Shown here: positions 5,435-18,830 of the stretch, piece after piece
Layout: each line of letters begins with the position of its first letter
Position numbering within the stretch: position 1 is the stretch's first letter
Source of the DNA: an uncultured delta proteobacterium
GTDB lineage: Bacteria; Myxococcota_A; Polyangia; Polyangiales; Polyangiaceae
Assembly: GCA_963716725.1 (NCBI GenBank)
Contig: CAVQUB010000003.1
Coordinates: 224,001-288,000, forward strand
Reading direction: 5' to 3'
Length of the DNA stretch: 64,000 bases
Position numbers and translations under genes: made by a program
The notes under the pieces: generated by a model
The model's database searches: none
The model's input: only the letters and a program-made list of their open reading frames with translations
What the model was told of the DNA's origin: nothing

Positions 5435-6410
5435 ATCGAACAGAATCGTTGCGGTGCCAGCGATCTCCCGCTCCGCGGCGGCTCCCGCCCTCGACGATCT
5501 CTCCGGCTTCGTGCGCGTGGTCGAGCTCGCCTCCTTCGCCCGGGCCGCCCGGGAGCTGGGCGTGCCCACTTCGACCCTGAGCCGCGCCGTCGGGCGTCTC
5601 GAGTCCAGATTGGGCGTCCGCCTGCTCCACCGCACCACGCGTCGGGTGCGCGTCACCGACGAAGGCGCCGAGCTGCACCTGCGCGTTGCTCCCGCACTGC
5701 TCGCGCTGCGCGACGCAGTCCGCGACGCCGAGGCCAGCGAGACGGTGCCGCGCGGTCGCGTACGGCTGACTGCCCCGAGCGACATCGCAGCCACCTTCCT
5801 CGCCGACGTGATCGGCGAGTTTGCCCTCGCCTACCCCGAGGTGGACGTTGAACTCTTGGTCACTCAACGCACCGTCGATCTGGTCGCCGAGGGCGTCGAC
5901 CTCGCGGTGAGGGCGGGCGTGTTGCGTGACTCGTCGTTGATCTCACGCCGCCTCGGCAGCGTCGAAGGCTGGCTCTGCGCTTCTCCCGAGTACCTCGCTC
6001 GCCGCGGGGTGCCGCGTACGCTGGCCGACGTCGTCGACCACGATCTGATCCTGTTTCGCGCGAACCGCGGGCGCGCCACCTGGCGACTCGAGATCGGCTC
6101 GCGGCAGTCCAGCCTCGACGTGCGCGGTCGCATCTCTTGCGACGACTTCACCTTCGTGCGCGCCGCTCTGCTCGCCGGCGCGGGCATGGGGCTGCTGCCG
6201 GCGCCCGTGGCCGCTCACGACATCGTCGAAGGCACGCTGGTCCACGTGCTCGACGCGCACAGCGAGGACCTCGGCGCGCTGCACCTGGTCTACCCCTCGG
6301 CCCGGCACCTACCGGCCAAGATCAGCGCGCTGCGCGACTTTTTGGCCGAGCGCTTTGTCAGCTACTGCGCGCCAGCGAAACCCAAGCAGCGCTCGCGCAG
6401 ATCGCGTTGA
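5427..6410 (+). CDS. LysR-family transcriptional regulator (CrgA-like); start uncertain
   Basis: FVRVVELASFARAARELGVPTSTLSRAVGRLESRLGVRLLHRTTR HTH; VDLVAEGVDLAVR; divergent from yceI. Confidence 0.95.
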   Translation: MQQSNRIVAVPAISRSAAAPALDDLSGFVRVVELASFARAARELGVPTSTLSRAVGRLESRLGVRLLHRTTRRVRVTDEGAELHLRVAPALLALRDAVRDAEASETVPRGRVRLTAPSDIAATFLADVIGEFALAYPEVDVELLVTQRTVDLVAEGVDLAVRAGVLRDSSLISRRLGSVEGWLCASPEYLARRGVPRTLADVVDHDLILFRANRGRATWRLEIGSRQSSLDVRGRISCDDFTFVRAALLAGAGMGLLPAPVAAHDIVEGTLVHVLDAHSEDLGALHLVYPSARHLPAKISALRDFLAERFVSYCAPAKPKQRSRRSR

Positions 6411-6437
6411 GCGCGGGCGCCCCGAGCTCCCAGACAG

Positions 6438-7199
6438 TCACCGGCTCTCGGCGACGCGCCGGAGCGCCGGGACAGGCAGGGCGAGTCTCTCGGCGTGAGC
6501 CAGCGCGCGCGCCAGACGCGCCGGCGCGCTCCGACCCGCGCAGGCATGTTCGGGATCGGCCGCGATGGCGCTCTCGAAGGCGGCGAGCATGACAGCTTCG
6601 TCCAACGACTCGTCGCAGAGGGCACGCTCGATAGCGAGCACGTCCCGCGCGACTCCGAGGGCGAGCTCGCGGTGGTCGCGCCACAACGCGGACACGGTGC
6701 CACCCTGGACGAGACCGGCGATGTTGGTCGTACCGATGTACAGGTTCTTGGACGCCAGCTCCCGAGTCAGCTCGGATTCGTCCCGGCAAACCCGGGTCGT
6801 GACCTGCACCGCGCGGAGGGCCTCCGTCAGCAGATCCGCGCGGGGGCCATAGATCAGCGTGGGCAGCAGCTCCTTGATCAGCGTCGTCGGCTTCTTCTCG
6901 AACCAGACCACCGCGACGCTCGGGTTCTCGATGCCGTGGGAACGCCAAGTCAGAAAACGTAGCTCGTTCTGCACCAGACCGACGCGCGATCGCCAGCGGG
7001 CGGGCAGGTCCGCCAACACGCTGTCGAGATCCGTCTCACCGACGGCGACGAGCGCCAAATCCGGCTCGGGCACGCGTGCCGCGACCTCCGACATGCTCAT
7101 GCCGCGCGTCACCGGCACCACCGTGTGGCCGCAGCGGAGCAGCCCCCGCGCGAAGACCGAGCCGAGCTCTCCGATGCCGACCACCACCACCCTTGCCAT
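6438..7199 (-). CDS. Rossmann-fold protein (ketopantoate-reductase-like)
   Basis: Begins MARVVVVGIGELG (GxGxxG); LVQNEL and KNLYI segments resemble PanE/ApbA-like proteins. Confidence 0.7.
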   Translation of the reverse strand: MARVVVVGIGELGSVFARGLLRCGHTVVPVTRGMSMSEVAARVPEPDLALVAVGETDLDSVLADLPARWRSRVGLVQNELRFLTWRSHGIENPSVAVVWFEKKPTTLIKELLPTLIYGPRADLLTEALRAVQVTTRVCRDESELTRELASKNLYIGTTNIAGLVQGGTVSALWRDHRELALGVARDVLAIERALCDESLDEAVMLAAFESAIAADPEHACAGRSAPARLARALAHAERLALPVPALRRVAESR

Positions 7200-7246
7200 A
7201 TTTTCGCGGATTGGTAGCACGGCGCGCGGCAGGGCGGTTCGACGGC

Positions 7247-8533
7247 TCAGACCGCCGCTGTGCGGTAGGGGCCCTCGTTCTTCACCTTCCTGGGGAAGAA
7301 CCCGGCGCCGCGGGTCGCGACCAAGGCGCCGATACCGAAGAGCACCACCGCTGCGGTGACGAAGCCGCCGACCCACGGAAGCCAGGAGCCGACCAGAAAG
7401 ATGGCGCAGCCCACCGCGAGATGCACATAGGGGCTCTTGCTGCGGTGGTGAAACACTGCCGCCCCCAGCGTGGTGAGCGCGGCGCAGATCCCGGCGTAGG
7501 CGCCGAGCACTCCGAGCAAGAGCGCGACGATAGCGATGGGGATGCCCACCACGGTCACGCAGAGCGCGATGAACGCCACGCAGGCGACCAGGGATCCGAC
7601 GATGCCCAGGGCGAGGGTGCGCATCGGGCGGGCTGCCACTTCGCCCTGCATCGCGTCCATGCGACCGGTGGCGAGGGCCAAGAGCACGGTGCCGAACACG
7701 AACAAGAGCGCCGTGCGGGTGATGCTGCCGCCGAGGTCGCTCAGCCACTGCATGAATCCCGACTTGGCCTCGTCGCCACGCGACACGCCGATATGCAGGT
7801 CGCCGTCGCCGCGACGAGCCTTGCCGCCGATGACGTCCACGTCCCCGTCAACCTTGGCTCCGTCGTCAGCGTCGAATGATCCGCCCACCACACTGACGTC
7901 ACCCCGCACGTGACCGCCCTTGCGCAGCTTGACCGAGCCGCCCATCACCGAGACGTCGCCGGTCACCGTGCCAAAGACCTCGGCCGAGCCGCCCATCACG
8001 ACCAGATCGTGCACCGTCTCGCCCGCCTCGACCCGCGTGCTGCCGCCGGTCACCACCCGGTCGTCACCGCGCTTCTCTACTCGATCGGGCTTCGCGGCCG
8101 GCGGCGGCTCGGGGGGAGCCGGCTCCGCCGCGGCTTCCACTGCTGCTGCGTCAGCAGCAACGGCAGTCGGCGCAGGAACTGGTGCCGCCGCGGGCGCTGC
8201 GTCGGCTACCTGCACCGCGGGCGCGATGGAGATCAGCGATCCATCGCGCTTGGCGACGTAGTGTCCATCCGAGAGCAACAACTCCAGGACTTTGTCGGCG
8301 GGTTGCTCGCTCACCTCTACATCCACCGGAGTCGACGAGGGCGCCTCGATCACCACGCTCCACCCGGCCTTCTGGGCCAGTCGCTTGACCGCCTCGGCAC
8401 GCGGCACTTGCTTCACCGAGAGCGAGACCTTGGGATCTTCGGCCGGCCACGTGCCTTGGCGCGAGACCTCAGCCAGCGCTGAGCCCGTGAGGCAGAGGAC
8501 CGCAATACCGGCCAGGATTCGACGAGACGTCAT
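7247..8533 (-). CDS. Signal peptide + STN-like domain + bactofilin-like beta-helix + multi-TM membrane protein
   Basis: Signal peptide MTSRRILAGIAVLCLTGSALA; VSLSVKQVPRAEAVKRLAQKAGWSVVI; repeated V-x-G-D-V-x-V-x-G-G units; 4-5 C-terminal hydrophobic helices. Confidence 0.75.
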   Translation of the reverse strand: MTSRRILAGIAVLCLTGSALAEVSRQGTWPAEDPKVSLSVKQVPRAEAVKRLAQKAGWSVVIEAPSSTPVDVEVSEQPADKVLELLLSDGHYVAKRDGSLISIAPAVQVADAAPAAAPVPAPTAVAADAAAVEAAAEPAPPEPPPAAKPDRVEKRGDDRVVTGGSTRVEAGETVHDLVVMGGSAEVFGTVTGDVSVMGGSVKLRKGGHVRGDVSVVGGSFDADDGAKVDGDVDVIGGKARRGDGDLHIGVSRGDEAKSGFMQWLSDLGGSITRTALLFVFGTVLLALATGRMDAMQGEVAARPMRTLALGIVGSLVACVAFIALCVTVVGIPIAIVALLLGVLGAYAGICAALTTLGAAVFHHRSKSPYVHLAVGCAIFLVGSWLPWVGGFVTAAVVLFGIGALVATRGAGFFPRKVKNEGPYRTAAV

Positions 8534-9036
8534 CAGCGTGCTCCCTTCCATTCCACTTGGCGCGGCACCTGGCGCGCGACCGCAAAGCCCAACACCGCCA
8601 GGACCAAGGTCGCCGACAGCCAGACGACCAGCAGCGACGGTCCCGCATTGGATGCGGCCTTGACCACCGACATGCCCACTCGAAAAGCGATGGGCGCGGT
8701 CTGAGCCACCGTCCGCGGCAACTCGTAGACGAAGCTCGGCAGCTGCCAGATGGCCGGTACCGCGCCGATCCCGGCGAGGATCATGCCGGCGGCGACAGCC
8801 CAGATCGGAATTGGCGCGGCGGGTCGCGCTGCCGTCAACGCTTCGGACACCGACAAGCTGAACATCGCCGCTCCCCCGAGCCGATGAGCGCAGTCCGCGC
8901 AATGCTCCACGTGGTCGGCCACTTCCCGAGTCACCAGCCCCGGCTCTCCATCGGCAAGAGCAGTGAGCGACAACTCGCTCGGATGCCCATCGGGCTGCCA
9001 GAGCTCCTCGTCCGAAAATCGTTGATCGCGCGTCAT
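8533..9036 (-). CDS. Zinc-finger (zf-HC2/ZAS) transmembrane anti-sigma factor
   Basis: HPSELSLTALADGE ... HVEHCADC (HxxxCxxC), two TM segments; ATGA overlap with the ECF sigma gene. Confidence 0.85.
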   Translation of the reverse strand: MTRDQRFSDEELWQPDGHPSELSLTALADGEPGLVTREVADHVEHCADCAHRLGGAAMFSLSVSEALTAARPAAPIPIWAVAAGMILAGIGAVPAIWQLPSFVYELPRTVAQTAPIAFRVGMSVVKAASNAGPSLLVVWLSATLVLAVLGFAVARQVPRQVEWKGAR

Positions 9037-14496: not shown

Positions 14497-15516
14497 TCAG
14501 GGGCAGTGCCACTTCAAGCCGCTGCCGTCATAGCGACAGCGACAGTACGAATTTGCGTACGGACACAGCGCTTGGCTGTCGCTACAGGCGCTCTCGGCAG
14601 CCGGCTTCGCTGTCGGGCAGGTCAGGCAACTCCAGTTGGTGGTCGTGCCGCCGCACCCGCAGGCGTTGTTGCCGTAGTTGCAGGTGTCATCGTAGCCGTT
14701 GCAGTTGGCTCCGTCGTTCGGCTCGCTCTGCGGGCACGGGTTGCAGTGCCAGGTCCCACCCCAGCAAGTGCACTGGTTGTTGCTGTACTTGCAGATCGTC
14801 CCAGGAGCGCTGCACGACGAGTTGTTCTGCGGCGCAGCGGGCGAACACGCGCTGGTCGTTCCACCGCTGCCACCCGCGCCGCCGCTGCCGCCCGCGCCGC
14901 CGGTCGTTCCACCGCTGCCGCCGGTCGTTCCTCCGCTGCCGCCGGTCGTTCCACCGCTGCCGCCGGTCGTTCCACCGCTGCCGCCGGTCGTGCCTCCGCT
15001 GCCGCCGGTCGTTCCACCGCTGCCACCGGTCGTTCCACCGCTGCCACCGGTCGTGCCGCCGCTGCCGCCCGCGCCGCCACTGCCGCCCGCGCCGCCCGCG
15101 CCGCCACTGCCGCCCGCGCCGCCACTGCCGCCCGCGCCGCCGCTGCCGCCCGCGCCGCCGGTCGTTCCACCGCTGCCGCCGGTCGTTCCACCGCTGCCGC
15201 CGGTCGTTCCACCGCTGCCGCCGGTCGCGCCGCCGCTGCCGCCGGTCGTGCCACCGCTGCCGCCGGTCGTTCCACCGCTGCCGCCGGTCGTGCCACCGCT
15301 GCCGCCGGTCGTGCCACCGCTGCCGGCAGACCCGCCCGTCGCTCCGCCGGAGCCACCGGTGTTCCCGGAACCGCCAGCGCCACCCGTGGCGCCGCCGCTT
15401 CCCCCGGTGTTCGAACTGCCTCCAGTTCCGAACTGGAACTCTTCGTAGTCGTTCGAACAGGCAACGGCCAGCGCGACGGTCGCGCTGACAACCCAAAGCG
15501 TGCGACGTCGGATCAT
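14497..15516 (-). CDS. Lipoprotein with long Gly/Thr/Ser linker and Cys-rich C-terminal repeats
   Basis: Lipobox AVAC; about 190 aa of GGSGGTT/GGAGGS; three CP-x-P...C...C-x-Y...C-x-C...W-x-C repeats. Confidence 0.85.
   Translation of the reverse strand: MIRRRTLWVVSATVALAVACSNDYEEFQFGTGGSSNTGGSGGATGGAGGSGNTGGSGGATGGSAGSGGTTGGSGGTTGGSGGTTGGSGGTTGGSGGATGGSGGTTGGSGGTTGGSGGTTGGAGGSGGAGGSGGAGGSGGAGGAGGSGGAGGSGGTTGGSGGTTGGSGGTTGGSGGTTGGSGGTTGGSGGTTGGSGGTTGGSGGTTGGAGGSGGAGGSGGTTSACSPAAPQNNSSCSAPGTICKYSNNQCTCWGGTWHCNPCPQSEPNDGANCNGYDDTCNYGNNACGCGGTTTNWSCLTCPTAKPAAESACSDSQALCPYANSYCRCRYDGSGLKWHCP
14854..15325. repeat. Coding tandem repeats of 21 bp (GGSGGTT) and 18 bp (GGAGGS)
   Basis: Repeated ccggtcgttccaccgctgccg and ccgcccgcgccgccactg units. 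Confidence 0.95.
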
Positions 15517-15537
15517 GGTCGAACCTTGGATCAGATT

Positions 15538-15553
15538 CGCACGCCGCGCGCCA
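15538..15553 (-). promoter_or_regulatory. Possible sigma54 promoter TGGCGCG-N4-GTGCG
   Basis: GG-N10-GC spacing, about 22 nt upstream of ATG 15516. Confidence 0.45.
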
Positions 15554-15595
15554 AAGTGCCAGCTACGTCCGCTCGCACCTCGGAGCACACGGTCG

Positions 15596-17488
15596 CTATT
15601 TCTTCTTCATGGTGGGGGGCGGGAGGGGATCCGGCGGCGGCGGCGGCGGCGGTCTGAAGCCGGTGTTCGTGGTGGTCGGCGGCGGAGGTGGATCCATGGG
15701 CGGCACCAGATCCGGCGGTGGCTGCGCGAACTCCGACGCATCCGGCTTGGGCTGGATCTCGAGGGCCTGACCCGCGTCTGCCAGGACGGGCGGGCCTTCG
15801 TGCTGCTCGCGCATGTGGGGCGGCGGCAGCGGATCGGGCGGCGGCGGCGCCAGCGGATCACAGGCCAAGGGAGTGAGCGCGATGGCAGCTGCGGCGGCCG
15901 CGCCCCAGCGCGGAACCGCGCGGGTCCTGGCCACGCCATGCACCGCACTCGAGATGGCGTGACTCACCTCGGCGACGCGGGCTCCAAGGGAGCGGTTCGC
16001 GCGCTCGACCTCCTCGAAGACAATGCCCGAGAAATCGTCGAAGGCCGCGGCATCGAGCGACGGCGGCGACTCGGCAAAATCGACGATCTCGTTCATGCGC
16101 GCCACCGAGTCCAGGTTCACCTGCCGGATGGTTTCGATCGTGCGAGCATGGAGCGTCGAGGTCCGCGCCTTCGGATAAAACTGCCGCAGCAAGTGCCAGT
16201 AGTAGCCGAGCGACAGGTTGCTGTTCATCAGCCCGTCGCAACGGAAGTTCCGATCGAGGAAGGTCCTCGCGAAAATGCGAAAGGCGCGCTCCGCCGCTGG
16301 GTCGCTGATCTCGTAGTCCCACCCGAAGACGTCGCCCACCAGCCGCTGCTCGCGCGCGAGCTTCTGGTGGAGCGGCGTGCCCGGGTAGATCTCGGTTCGG
16401 CAGAAGTTCATCGGCACGTCGGCGTTGCGCTTCAAGAAGGCGAGGCTCTCGCGCAGCGACCGAATGCGGGTCTCCGGATCGAAGATCAGCATGTTGAAGC
16501 AGGCGTAGACGTCGATCTCGCGCAAGAAATCCAGGGCGCGTTGGTTCTGCGCGATGTCCACGCCGCGCCCGAGAGTCTTGAGCCCCTGGGTGCTGCCGGC
16601 CTCGATCCCGATGTACATGCGCAGCAGCCCGATCTCCCGCAGCACGCGGAACACCTCGGTGTCGAGATCGTCGGGACGGGCTTTGAGCACCAAGGCGACG
16701 TCGTTCACACCACGCCGCCGGAATGCGTCGCGCAAGCTCGTGACGCGCGCCAGGTCGCGGACGGCGTTGCGGGTGAAGAAGTCGTCATCGTGAAACACGA
16801 GCATTCGTGCGCCGCGCTCGCTACGCACCGCGGCGACCTCGTCAGCGACGTTGTCTGCGCTGCGCGAGCGGTAGCGCTCTCCCCCTGCGTCGGCGATGTA
16901 GGCGTGGATGCAGCAGAAGGTGCAGTGGCCATAGCAGCCTCGGGTACCCACCAAGAACGCCGCAGGGATGCCCATGTGCAGCTGCGGCTCCCCGGTACGC
17001 ACCGGGAAGTGAATCGCGTCGAGGTCCGATGCCAGCGGCCGAGGCGGGGCTGCGTAGATGCTGCCATCCGGCCGGCGCTGCACCAGACCGGCCACGTCGT
17101 CCAGTGACGCACCGAGCCGCTCGCACAACTCGACCAGGGTCGACTCGCCCTCGTGTCGCACGACGCTGTCGATGCTGGGAAAGCGCTCCAGCACCTCGCG
17201 ATAGGCAAAGGTGGGGAAGTGCCCGCCAACCGTCAGGTGTCCCGAAAAGCCTCCGTCGCGCAGGCTTCCCGCGAGCTGCCCAAACTCCTCGGCACGCCGC
17301 TGAAACGTCATCGACAAGCCGATCACGTCAGGCTCGAAGCGACGCGCGGCCTCGTGCACCGTCGCCGTGTCCGCCGGCGATGAGAAGGGCGCCAGCTCGC
17401 TGCGATGCCCGGCCGCATCGAGCGCCGACGCGAGGTAACGAATCGCCAGGTTCTCCTCCAACTCCGACCCCACGAGCAGCACTTTCAT
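15596..17488 (-). CDS. Cobalamin-dependent radical SAM enzyme with C-terminal lipobox and Pro-rich tail
   Basis: B12-binding domain (ENLAIRYLAS, PDVIGLS, VGGHFPT, HEGE); TRGCYGHCTFC (CxxxCxxC); FHDDDF; YIGIEAGS; YPGTPL; tail AIALTPLACDPLAPPPPDPLPPP... Confidence 0.93.
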   Translation of the reverse strand: MKVLLVGSELEENLAIRYLASALDAAGHRSELAPFSSPADTATVHEAARRFEPDVIGLSMTFQRRAEEFGQLAGSLRDGGFSGHLTVGGHFPTFAYREVLERFPSIDSVVRHEGESTLVELCERLGASLDDVAGLVQRRPDGSIYAAPPRPLASDLDAIHFPVRTGEPQLHMGIPAAFLVGTRGCYGHCTFCCIHAYIADAGGERYRSRSADNVADEVAAVRSERGARMLVFHDDDFFTRNAVRDLARVTSLRDAFRRRGVNDVALVLKARPDDLDTEVFRVLREIGLLRMYIGIEAGSTQGLKTLGRGVDIAQNQRALDFLREIDVYACFNMLIFDPETRIRSLRESLAFLKRNADVPMNFCRTEIYPGTPLHQKLAREQRLVGDVFGWDYEISDPAAERAFRIFARTFLDRNFRCDGLMNSNLSLGYYWHLLRQFYPKARTSTLHARTIETIRQVNLDSVARMNEIVDFAESPPSLDAAAFDDFSGIVFEEVERANRSLGARVAEVSHAISSAVHGVARTRAVPRWGAAAAAAIALTPLACDPLAPPPPDPLPPPHMREQHEGPPVLADAGQALEIQPKPDASEFAQPPPDLVPPMDPPPPPTTTNTGFRPPPPPPPDPLPPPTMKKK

Positions 17489-17600
17489 GCGCGACCTCCC
17501 AGGCGGTGAGTCTGCCAGACTTCAATCGATCTGGAGGTCCAATAATGCGGTGGCGCCGGAGACGCGCTCGACCCACGCGGGCCTGTGCTATTTTGCGCTG

Positions 17601-18830
17601 ATGCGCGGTCGATTTCTGGGTGTTGCTCTGTTCACGCTGTCGAGCCTGGCGAGCGCCTACGACGAGAACCACGTGTTCATCACCAATCGCGGTGGCAACA
17701 ACGTGCTCGAGCTCGACGAGAACCTGACCTACGTCAAGAGCTGGTTCGACGGGGCGGCCCTCAGCGTGCCCAACGGCATGGCCTTCGATCCTCTCGACCG
17801 CCTCTACTTGGCCGACACGGGCAACGACCGCATCGTCGTGTTCGACGACAAGGGCGCCGTCGTCACGACCTGGGGCACGAAGACGCTCTTGGCGCCGCAG
17901 GTCGAGAGCTTGAACTTCAACGCGGCGGGCAGGTTGTTCGCCAGCGCCAACCCAGGCAACGGCACGGTCGCAAGCTGGAAGAACGACGGCAGCGACCAGA
18001 AGGTGTTTGTCAGCGACTCGTCCTACCTGAGCCTGGGCAACGTGAACTTCAGCATGGGCGGCAACGTGCTGCTCGCGGACTTCTCGGGCTCCCGCGGCGT
18101 GCGCGAGCTGAACCCAACGACCGGCGCGCTCATCACCGAGTTCGGACAGGGCACGAGCAAACACGAAGACATGGTCGTCGACGCCGACGACAACGTCTTC
18201 GTCTCGGCGTTCACCCAGAACAAGATCCTGAAGTTCGACGCCACGCGAAAGCAGGTGGGAACCTATTCTCCTCCGGGTTTGGTTCAGCCCACTGGCATCG
18301 TCTTGACCGCCGGCTGCAAGCTGCTCGTGGCCTCGTTTGGCACCCACGAGATCTTCGAGCTCGACTATGACGGCACCTTCATCAAGAAGTTCACGGTTCC
18401 CGGCTTGTCGCTGCCCGAGAGCTTGGTGATCGCGAAGCTCTCGGTGGCCGGATCGATTTCCCTCGGCAAGGCCGTGCCGGACTGCGAGGGGCCCGACGGC
18501 GGCAGCGGTGGCGCGAGCGGCGGCGCCGGCGGCAGCGCGGGCAGCGGTGGCGCGAGCGGCGGCGCCGGCGGCACCGCGGGCGGCGGCGGGGCGGCCGGCA
18601 GCGGCGGCGCCAGCTCGGGGGGAAGCGCCGGCAAGGGCGGCGGCTCCGCGGCGACGGGTGGCGCGGCGAGCGGCGGCGCTCCGGCGAAGGGCGCCACGAC
18701 CTCCGACGACGATGGCGGCTGCGGCTGTCGCGCGGCCCGATCAGATCCGCGTTCGAGCCTCGCCAGCGCCTTGATGCTGCTCGGGGTGGCGCTCTTGCGC
18801 CGGAAGCGCTCGCGTCTCGACGCCGAGTAA
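17601..18830 (+). CDS. Secreted NHL-type beta-propeller protein with Gly-rich linker and MYXO-CTERM-type sorting signal
   Basis: Signal peptide; PNGMAFDPLDRLYLADTGNDRIVVFD NHL repeat; ends DDDGGCGCR...ALMLLGVALLRRKR. Confidence 0.88.
   Translation: MRGRFLGVALFTLSSLASAYDENHVFITNRGGNNVLELDENLTYVKSWFDGAALSVPNGMAFDPLDRLYLADTGNDRIVVFDDKGAVVTTWGTKTLLAPQVESLNFNAAGRLFASANPGNGTVASWKNDGSDQKVFVSDSSYLSLGNVNFSMGGNVLLADFSGSRGVRELNPTTGALITEFGQGTSKHEDMVVDADDNVFVSAFTQNKILKFDATRKQVGTYSPPGLVQPTGIVLTAGCKLLVASFGTHEIFELDYDGTFIKKFTVPGLSLPESLVIAKLSVAGSISLGKAVPDCEGPDGGSGGASGGAGGSAGSGGASGGAGGTAGGGGAAGSGGASSGGSAGKGGGSAATGGAASGGAPAKGATTSDDDGGCGCRAARSDPRSSLASALMLLGVALLRRKRSRLDAE

Follow-up and report, generated by a model that had tools for sequence, protein, structure and literature searches.

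In the window analysed here, a stretch of 64,000 nucleotides from an uncultured delta proteobacterium of the family Polyangiaceae (contig CAVQUB010000003.1), one open reading frame (ORF) of the reverse strand (15596..17488, -; 630 residues plus stop, ATG start) joins a class B radical S-adenosylmethionine (SAM) enzyme to a C-terminal part that resembles a lipoprotein precursor. The ORF is a predicted cobalamin-dependent radical SAM enzyme of an unnamed family and its Pro-rich tail is conserved together with it. At most of the loci inspected, relatives of the enzyme without a tail are encoded beside separate ORFs, lipoproteins where the N-terminus was inspected, that bear motifs of the same type, so that, as judged from sequence, the fused and split forms genetically link the enzyme superfamily to motif-bearing lipoproteins. 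The reading favoured here, to which we give an even chance, is that of an enzyme-substrate fusion whose tail would be modified in the cytoplasm and then exported and lipidated.

The enzyme part comprises a cobalamin (B12)-binding domain (residues 12-121; 17126..17455, -; Pfam PF02310, E 1.3e-18, 67.4 bits against a cut-off of 32.1), a Radical SAM core (residues 181-341; 16466..16948, -; Pfam PF04055, E 3.3e-16, 60.3 bits against a cut-off of 29.5) and a conserved C-terminal enzyme domain (residues 342-518; 15935..16465, -) that displays many invariant columns. The core contains the sequence CYGHCTFC, a CxxxCxxC motif for the [4Fe-4S] cluster and SAM (residues 185-192, with C185, C189 and C192; 16913..16936, -), which is present in 121 of 121 sequences (the query and 120 listed homologues) and invariant in a 72-sequence alignment, termed A1. 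An AlphaFold2 model built from a 72-row alignment presents a predicted local distance difference test score (pLDDT) of 80.4 and is largely confident over residues 1-520, with the exception of two short low-confidence loops (residues 186-191 and 297-307). Most of the C-terminal domain scores above 90, and the domain closes with a long helix (residues 480-518) leading into the signal-like segment described below. Structural similarity search of the model using Foldseek revealed OxsB (E 8.7e-20), TsrM (1.5e-16), MgmA (1.2e-14), CysS and TokK (both 1.2e-13), all class B enzymes with the same fold and the same B12-binding and CxxxCxxC layout, although identity over the structural alignments is just 15-19%. 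MgmA (PDB code 9ccb), the glutamine C-methylase of methyl-coenzyme M reductase (MCR), and TsrM are class B enzymes that act on peptides or proteins. At the sequence level the PDB matches include OxsB, with an E value of 9.4e-14, and, at 8.9e-10, entry 9ccb of the MCR glutamine methylase. Because the B12-binding and radical SAM domains, the CxxxCxxC motif and the Foldseek matches agree, the ORF is assigned to class B as a prediction from sequence and model. No NCBIfam model reached its own cut-off for the ORF (BchE 105.5 bits against 481.35, HpnR 104.4 against 650, HpnJ 90.1 against 577.6, ApyD 85.5 against 750), which falls in none of the BchE, HpnR, HpnJ, ApyD, ladderane-lipid radical SAM or MCR glutamine methylase equivalogs. 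The G+C content at third codon positions of the ORF is 0.85, as in the neighbouring genes.

The enzyme is followed, in frame, by a segment with the make-up of a lipoprotein signal. A basic n-region, RTRAVPR (residues 521-527; 15908..15928, -), precedes an Ala-rich hydrophobic h-region, WGAAAAAAIALTPLA, of 15 uncharged residues (residues 528-542; 15863..15907, -) and the candidate lipidated Cys543, in the context P-L-A-C-D (15860..15862, -). The segment is internal, beginning at residue 521 of 630, unlike N-terminal lipoprotein signals. Its h-region is as long as the family median (15 residues) and close to the median of 14 for N-terminal lipoprotein signals of the same genome, these having been predicted with a regular expression that itself confines the hydrophobic run to 10-25 residues. 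A 15-residue Ala-rich run has the length of a signal peptide and appears too short for a comfortable transmembrane helix; being both too short and too Ala-rich, it would be a signal peptide rather than a stable transmembrane helix. A Cys follows the h-region in 118 of the 121 sequences (117 found by script and P0094 by eye), and the residue at position -1 is A, G or S in 106 of the 117 orthologues. The genome encodes the two enzymes that such a signal would call for, lspA (86.2 bits against a cut-off of 73.95) and lgt (168 bits against one of 118.9).

Beyond Cys543 lies a Pro-rich tail of 87 residues (15599..15859, -), a candidate mature lipopeptide and substrate that contains 34 Pro (39%) and is predicted to be disordered, with a pLDDT below 50 over most of its length. 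Motif copy 1, DPLAPPPP, comes immediately after Cys543 (15836..15859, -) and is followed by copy 2, DPLPPP (D552-P557; 15818..15835, -), copy 3, DPPPPP (D599-P604; 15677..15694, -), and copy 4, DPLPPP (D620-P625; 15614..15631, -), the last of which sits five residues before the C-terminus in a tail closing in TMKKK; many orthologue tails, inspected by eye and uncounted, likewise finish with the last motif and a few mostly basic residues. In alignment A1, P540, P553, P555, D620, P623 and P625 are invariant, and D552, P557, D599, P600, P602, P604 and L622 are conserved in at least 90% of the sequences. Between copies 2 and 3 lies EFAQPPP (E586-P592; 15713..15733, -), which resembles the E-M/F/Y-A-x-P-P motif of sister clades and may be related to it, a tie that rests on resemblance; an [FY]A[QE]PPP element recurs in many orthologue tails. 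In a six-frame translation of the 7.9-Mb genome, PPDP[LPVIM]PxP occurs twice in the radical SAM ORF and once each in seven other ORFs. A Pfam scan up to E 10 of this tail and of two paralogue tails found no family, and a TonB-C-like domain considered for the paralogue on contig C12 was abandoned as unsupported, with no usable Pfam match to E 10. The original prediction, made from the letters alone, had described a complete B12-binding and CxxxCxxC radical SAM enzyme, then basic RTRAVPR, a hydrophobic stretch, Cys543 at 15860-15862 and a tail with DPLAPPPP, DPLPPP, DPPPPP and DPLPPP ending in KKK; Pfam and translation bear out every element and coordinate.

The same architecture was found in close homologues. 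A search over 5.8 billion proteins returned 296 matches, the best 120 of which were analysed; these present 56-96% identity and 559-712 residues and have the fused layout in common, the hydrophobic segment and tail being missing in 1 of the 120 (P0027, a cut or frameshifted entry). Named homologues carry the labels Polyangiaceae or Myxococcales, which, together with the MYXO-CTERM domain of a neighbouring ORF, marks the organism as a myxobacterium. Tails of the query and these 120 homologues hold between 0 and 8 copies of DPxPxP, most often 4 (0, 1 and 2 copies in one sequence each, 3 in 28, 4 in 40, 5 in 28, 6 in 14, 7 in 5 and 8 in 3), and the tails therefore recur with variable repeat number, a possibility that the original prediction had raised. 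Full-length matches with at least 62% identity, 626-656 residues long, were identified in seven other genome assemblies among 41 relatives searched, and among 301 sampled genomes of the phylum, eight, all of one family, have full-length matches of at least 60% identity. The ratio of non-synonymous to synonymous substitution rates (dN/dS), calculated pairwise for six same-genus orthologues, is 0.09-0.25 in the tail and 0.13-0.18 in the enzyme part, rising to 0.58 and 0.36, respectively, for the most distant orthologue, and the remaining two frames over the tail region contain no conserved coding frame. Since tail and enzyme dN/dS are alike and tail positions stay invariant, the tail is, on these measures, a selected coding sequence under purifying selection like the enzyme part. 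By the same comparison the fusion is genuine and conserved, and no assembly artefact, because one in-frame junction recurs in the seven other assemblies and in the listed homologues; what was found is thus neither a family lacking tail, motif and Cys nor a fusion made by an indel. When residues 515-630 were searched among proteins shorter than 346 residues, no free-standing tail protein was found; the five matches are fragments of fused proteins, and all begin within the C-terminal half of the enzyme.

More distant relatives display the signal-like segment with tails of very different kinds. An exhaustive phmmer search with residues 1-520 gave 1,030 representatives at E <=1e-30, from which 149 listed representatives outside the window's own cluster, at no more than 50% identity, were taken as a sample of the superfamily. 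They comprise 12 proteins shorter than 470 residues, 41 without a hydrophobic segment after the enzyme, 1 without a scorable tail and 95 with such a segment. A net basic n-region is present in 86 of the 95 and a Cys follows the segment in 72, with G, A or S at position -1 in 61 of these 72, so that the hydrophobic segment plus Cys which had been read as a lipoprotein signal in the window is a superfamily-wide pattern. The tails extend from 25 to about 500 residues and are otherwise unrelated, sharing short motifs: 40 of the 95 contain E[MFY][AVI]x?P (shuffled tails: mean 3.7, maximum 9) and 33 contain [DE]P[LVAPIM]P (shuffled tails: mean 14.3, maximum 23). The consensus over 104 motif instances reads T-H-x-x-E-M-A-P-x-P, and many instances of it stand directly past the Cys or a few residues from the C-terminus. 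Motif types, [DE]P-x-P-x-P or T-H-x-x-E-M-A-P-x-P, appear to be clade-specific. On a FastTree tree of 141 enzyme parts, motif type changes 11 times among 78 motif-bearing rows, while 500 label shuffles on the same tree gave a mean of 30.4 changes and a minimum of 22; because kin share motif labels, the tracking of the enzyme tree by motif type is only consistent with co-evolution and no proof of it. In two paralogues of the same genome, canonical lipoboxes (AAGC and ATGC) precede HPTEMVAIP, or DPLP and DPPP. Recognisable domains were identified past the signal-like segment in 5 of 18 long-tailed representatives scanned, namely a CE15 glucuronyl esterase (P0169), bacterial TSP3 repeats (P0210) and ankyrin repeats (P0189, P0196 and P0236); the esterase and the TSP3 repeats are of an extracytoplasmic type, as is usual for exported proteins.

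Several individual members of the superfamily are recorded here as observations. P0156, an 842-residue relative with six motifs of the T-H-x-x-E-M-A-P type, carries the label of a Phycisphaerae (Planctomycetota) metagenome-assembled genome, and if this label is correct the superfamily reaches beyond Myxococcota. A paralogue in the window's genome (G000:C15:317557-319201, -; locus L023) consists of two overlapping ORFs that match positions 1-350 and 344-520 of a hidden Markov model (HMM) of the enzyme part; the split is a frameshift or an assembly error, and the second ORF keeps LGATGC and a tail with DPLP, DALP and DPPP. Two further paralogues, in different genomes (G034:C9:72302-74218 and G174:C3:3556682-3558580), contain three in-frame TGA codons each and may be broken, frameshifted or recoded.

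The evidence that ties the motif to the enzyme most directly comes from loci where the two are separate. At 50 superfamily loci extracted from genomes, scoring of ORFs with the enzyme-part HMM produced 52 ORF hits, comprising 32 with a fused tail, all 32 with the Cys, and 18 that are complete and tail-less. In 26 of the 32 fused ORFs a relaxed form of the motif is found no more than 25 residues past the Cys, as compared with 17 of 632 lipoproteins predicted by regular expression in the window's genome, the rows being non-independent since 6 of the 32 are orthologues of the window protein. Same-strand ORFs within 1.5 kb of the tail-less enzymes were then inspected, and an adjacent ORF bearing the motif was present at 12 of the 18 loci, so that the motif recurs both fused and as an adjacent gene, the two arrangements that the original prediction had envisaged. 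Those split partners whose N-terminus was inspected carry an ordinary N-terminal lipoprotein signal peptide. In group A (7 loci, including contig C9 of the window's own genome), all seven loci have an ORF 15-181 nt upstream containing C-x-x-I-[AC]-E-M-A-P-x-P-I, the motif block being the most conserved part of the protein in the partner alignment; six of the seven partners begin with the basic, hydrophobic and Cys elements, the seventh having been cut by start trimming, and a locus in genome G001 is an eighth carrying the group A motif. The own-genome pair (G000:C9, locus L024; ORFs 7509-8603, -, and 5875-7500, -) is composed of a Gly-rich lipoprotein with an LGSC lipobox and the sequence CKTIAEMAPTPILP, located 15 nt upstream of the tail-less enzyme paralogue. 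In group B (4 loci), an adjacent lipoprotein in three displays a lipobox and then GY[AG]VVDP[MI]PxP, as exemplified by LLAISALAAAC-HPVDPGYGVVDPIPDP and ALVGTVAC-NRCSSTTGGYAVVDPMPPP. In group C (2 loci), both have a downstream lipoprotein in which ..TC is followed by GAVDPAPxP within six residues of the Cys. The placement of the group A tail-less enzyme on the tree beside a fused clade with EM-type motifs was set aside as uninformative, given a long branch and mixed neighbours. As a separate observation, the signal peptides of the group B partners L034, L037 and L042 share T-[VIL]-A-H-[ML]-x-[RK]-L-[LV] before the h-region, a conserved stretch which hints at possible recognition of the signal region itself.

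Genes that are fused in some lineages and neighbours in others are a classic mark of a functional pair. The split enzymes are probably cytoplasmic, because they lack a hydrophobic segment and need Fe-S, SAM and cobalamin, and a cytoplasmic enzyme could meet an exported partner only before export, as an enzyme meets its precursor substrate; it is this pre-export meeting that favours an enzyme-substrate relationship over an anchor plus spacer. The [D/E]-x-x-P-x-P motif, as the element shared by fused and split forms, would then be a recognition or modification site. In the favoured enzyme-substrate fusion, the enzyme (residues 1-518) would fold and load its cofactors in the cytoplasm and would modify one residue of the motif, in its own tail or in that of a second copy, the likeliest chemistry, guessed from the enzyme class, being C-methylation (+14 Da). 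The signal-like segment (residues 521-543) would next insert with its N-terminus in and its C-terminus out, the tail would be translocated and Cys543 would be lipidated by Lgt. LspA may finally cut before Cys543 to give an 88-residue lipopeptide (Cys543-Lys630), leaving the enzyme behind; the mature part (residues 544-630) would be disordered, 39% Pro, and would carry PPP-D-P-(L/P)-P-P-P three to four times. With the enzyme placed ahead of the signal, export would have to wait until the enzyme has been made. For the original prediction, which had cast the tail as a built-in substrate, the fused and split coupling supports the partnership of enzyme and tail; modification, export, lipidation, cleavage and a location at the surface are steps that we infer.

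A number of observations weigh against this reading. The sequence P-L-A-C departs from the lipobox [LVI][ASTVI][GAS]C in that Ala at -1 fits and Pro at -3 does not, so that of the lipobox LA-C proposed originally Cys543 and the Ala before it stand, in a context other than the textbook L-[AS]-[GA]-C; Pro is also found at -3 in 54 of the 117 orthologues. At -1, 11 of the 117 have D or N, unsuited to signal peptidase II, and the Cys is absent from 2 of the 121 sequences (P0065 and P0075) and from 23 of the 95 representatives that have a hydrophobic segment. The group A motif lies about 270 residues from the lipobox rather than adjoining it. No motif gene was found on the same strand within 1.5 kb at 6 of the 18 tail-less loci, namely one of group B and the five that belong to none of the three groups; among the six, L021 has a 256-residue extension and is not truly tail-less, and L062 reaches the contig end. 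Single matches to the relaxed motif are weak evidence, given how short and Pro-rich it is and a genomic G+C content of about 68%. The AlphaFold2 model leaves the tail disordered and undocked. Finally, an enzyme cut from its substrate could be used once or a few times and would be an expensive leader. A predicted complex of enzyme residues 1-520 with tail residues 543-630, made from A1 without controls, scored 0.01 against a mark of 0.32 and counts neither way.

The chief rival, which we hold to be unlikely, describes a membrane-tethered enzyme with an uncleaved C-terminal anchor and a rigid, TonB-like polyproline-II spacer whose motifs dock a partner in the periplasm or outer membrane, the substrate being something else, such as a membrane lipid or tetrapyrrole, as for the weakly matching BchE, HpnR and HpnJ. 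It would accommodate the disordered, Pro-rich tail, the imperfect lipobox of many orthologues and the relatives without a Cys, and the best NCBIfam matches, BchE and HpnR, are indeed enzymes of tetrapyrroles and lipids, although their scores are far under the cut-offs of 481-650 bits. An anchor is at odds with an Ala-rich uncharged run of just 15 residues, the length of a signal peptide, and the tail contains neither TonB_C nor any other Pfam domain. This rival is weakened above all by the split forms, in which enzymes without a hydrophobic segment stand beside a separate exported lipoprotein that carries the motif; anchoring cannot be the function common to both.

A distinctly less probable alternative is that the enzyme part serves as a hold-back or chaperone domain delaying or regulating export of the lipoprotein, or that the motif is a regulatory pseudo-substrate. 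The coupling of fused and split forms demonstrates functional linkage without proving catalysis on the motif, and premature export is raised as a problem of signal-bearing precursors in the available parts of the bufferin report (PMC12452194). The invariant radical SAM cysteines and dozens of invariant enzyme columns argue instead for a catalytically active enzyme, and a chaperone role leaves unexplained why a short motif should be conserved and follow the enzyme clades. The proline runs might also, with very little probability, be translational pause sites, with stalling relieved by elongation factor P, that give a late internal signal time to reach the membrane, the conserved motif serving no other purpose. 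PPP, DPP and APP triplets are strong ribosome-stalling contexts, and the last motif lies about 80 residues past the h-region, so that the signal would already be outside the ribosome tunnel. Against this, the sister motifs IAEMAPTPI and THxxEMAPxP are often without consecutive prolines, the acidic residue and the spacing are conserved as well as the prolines, and the motif is also found in the split lipoproteins, whose N-terminal signals need no pause. An assembly or annotation artefact, in which an indel fused a radical SAM gene with some unrelated ORF downstream of it, is of negligible probability: long chance open frames are possible in a G+C-rich region, but no positive support was found, the junction stands in seven other assemblies and 120 listed homologues from several sources, and only the frame of the tail, under purifying selection, is conserved coding.

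The enzyme-substrate fusion proposed here shares individual properties with several known systems. To our knowledge, none of OxsB, TsrM, MgmA, CysS and TokK carries a signal-like segment or a substrate tail. Borosins of the OphMA type likewise hold an N-terminal enzyme and a C-terminal candidate substrate in one polypeptide, and, according to the available portions of the reports, exist in both fused and split versions (PMC7878506; bioRxiv 10.1101/2021.12.24.474128). Borosin enzymes are ordinary SAM-dependent alpha-N-methyltransferases, in contrast with the window ORF, in which the only Pfam domains are B12-binding and Radical_SAM; they are not known to have an internal signal peptide or lipobox, both of which the window ORF has in candidate form, and their self-modification is demonstrated, whereas for the window protein it is a prediction. 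Borosins, and with them bottromycin, which the original prediction had also cited as a parallel, are analogies and not relatives. Bufferin precursors bear signal peptides and undergo modification in the cytoplasm, ahead of Sec export; lipoprotein signals are predicted for about 16% of Buf2 precursors, and premature export is named as a difficulty, as far as the consulted sections of that report go (PMC12452194). These and other precursors modified by multinuclear non-haem iron enzymes (MNIO) have an export signal in place of the classical leader and cytoplasmic modification first, the order proposed here, and differ from the window ORF in the iron enzyme itself, in Cys-based motifs and in a separate precursor gene with a partner protein. 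The fusions mentioned in the same sections join bufferin domains to other proteins, none joining an MNIO enzyme to its precursor (PMC12452194).

A curated but uncharacterised pair of radical SAM enzyme and lipoprotein, TIGR04133 (rSAM_w_lipo) and TIGR04134 (lipo_with_rSAM), is encoded by separate genes; the TIGR04133 enzyme is presumably non-B12. TIGR04133 gave 21 matches in the window's genome, none at its cut-off and the window ORF not among them, and TIGR04134 had no match there, with a positive Bacteroides thetaiotaomicron control. In TonB, too, a hydrophobic segment leads into an extracytoplasmic stretch that is rich in Pro and probably extended. The anchor of TonB is N-terminal, it has no enzyme domain and its repeats are EP/KP, in contrast with the [D/E]-x-x-P-x-P unit of the window ORF, whose tail, unlike TonB, is without a C-terminal folded domain or Pfam match. 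In a search of full-text literature, with most subscription journals and supplements outside its reach, no description was found of these motifs or of a radical SAM enzyme joined to a lipoprotein signal inside the same chain, in agreement with the absence of a known system of this architecture noted at the outset.

On the conservative reading, these data describe a large enzyme family, as yet without a name, that is genetically coupled to lipoproteins bearing the motif and is at present annotated merely as 'radical SAM protein' or wrongly as 'BchE/YgiQ'. If the enzyme-substrate fusion is correct, radical SAM/B12 chemistry would act on exported lipoproteins, at a Pro-rich motif beside the lipid anchor, which would be new to lipoprotein biology, and a signal peptidase II site would lie about 520 residues inside a protein whose N-terminal part, the enzyme, is discarded. 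A whole enzyme of about 520 residues acting as the 'leader' of its own lipoprotein, with cytoplasmic modification, an internal signal and release by signal peptidase II of a polyproline peptide that is lipidated and C-modified, would constitute a new maturation route, which is put forward tentatively and with some doubt. An enzyme fused ahead of the signal would remove the risk of 'premature export' that signal-bearing precursors run and provide a new ordering of 'modify first, export second'. The fused and split pairs would then amount to a list of enzyme-substrate couples, including one split pair in the same genome, and the superfamily, with about 1,000 representatives, would point to a so far hidden class of lipoproteins with post-translational modifications, in Myxococcota and, going by a single label, in Planctomycetota.

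The genes around the fused ORF include no conserved partner, synteny being restricted to the two closest of five species examined. The gene order, with a Gly-rich lipoprotein and an M20 peptidase downstream, is kept in G002 and G005 and not in G003, G004 and G009. The Gly-rich lipoprotein was considered as a partner and dismissed on the grounds that its synteny is limited to G002 and G005 and that no DPxP motif was seen in it by eye. The downstream ORF (14497-15588, -; 363 residues) is lipoprotein-like, with an LAVAC lipobox, a long run of repeats of the GGSGGTTGG type and a C-terminal part rich in Cys; neither Pfam nor NCBIfam gave a match for it. On the other side, the divergent neighbour (17487-18830, +) presents matches to NHL/SGL beta-propellers together with a MYXO-CTERM sorting domain. 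The ATG listed for this neighbour overlaps the start codon of the radical SAM ORF, and an internal, signal-like stretch, MRGRFLGVALF, is its likelier start.

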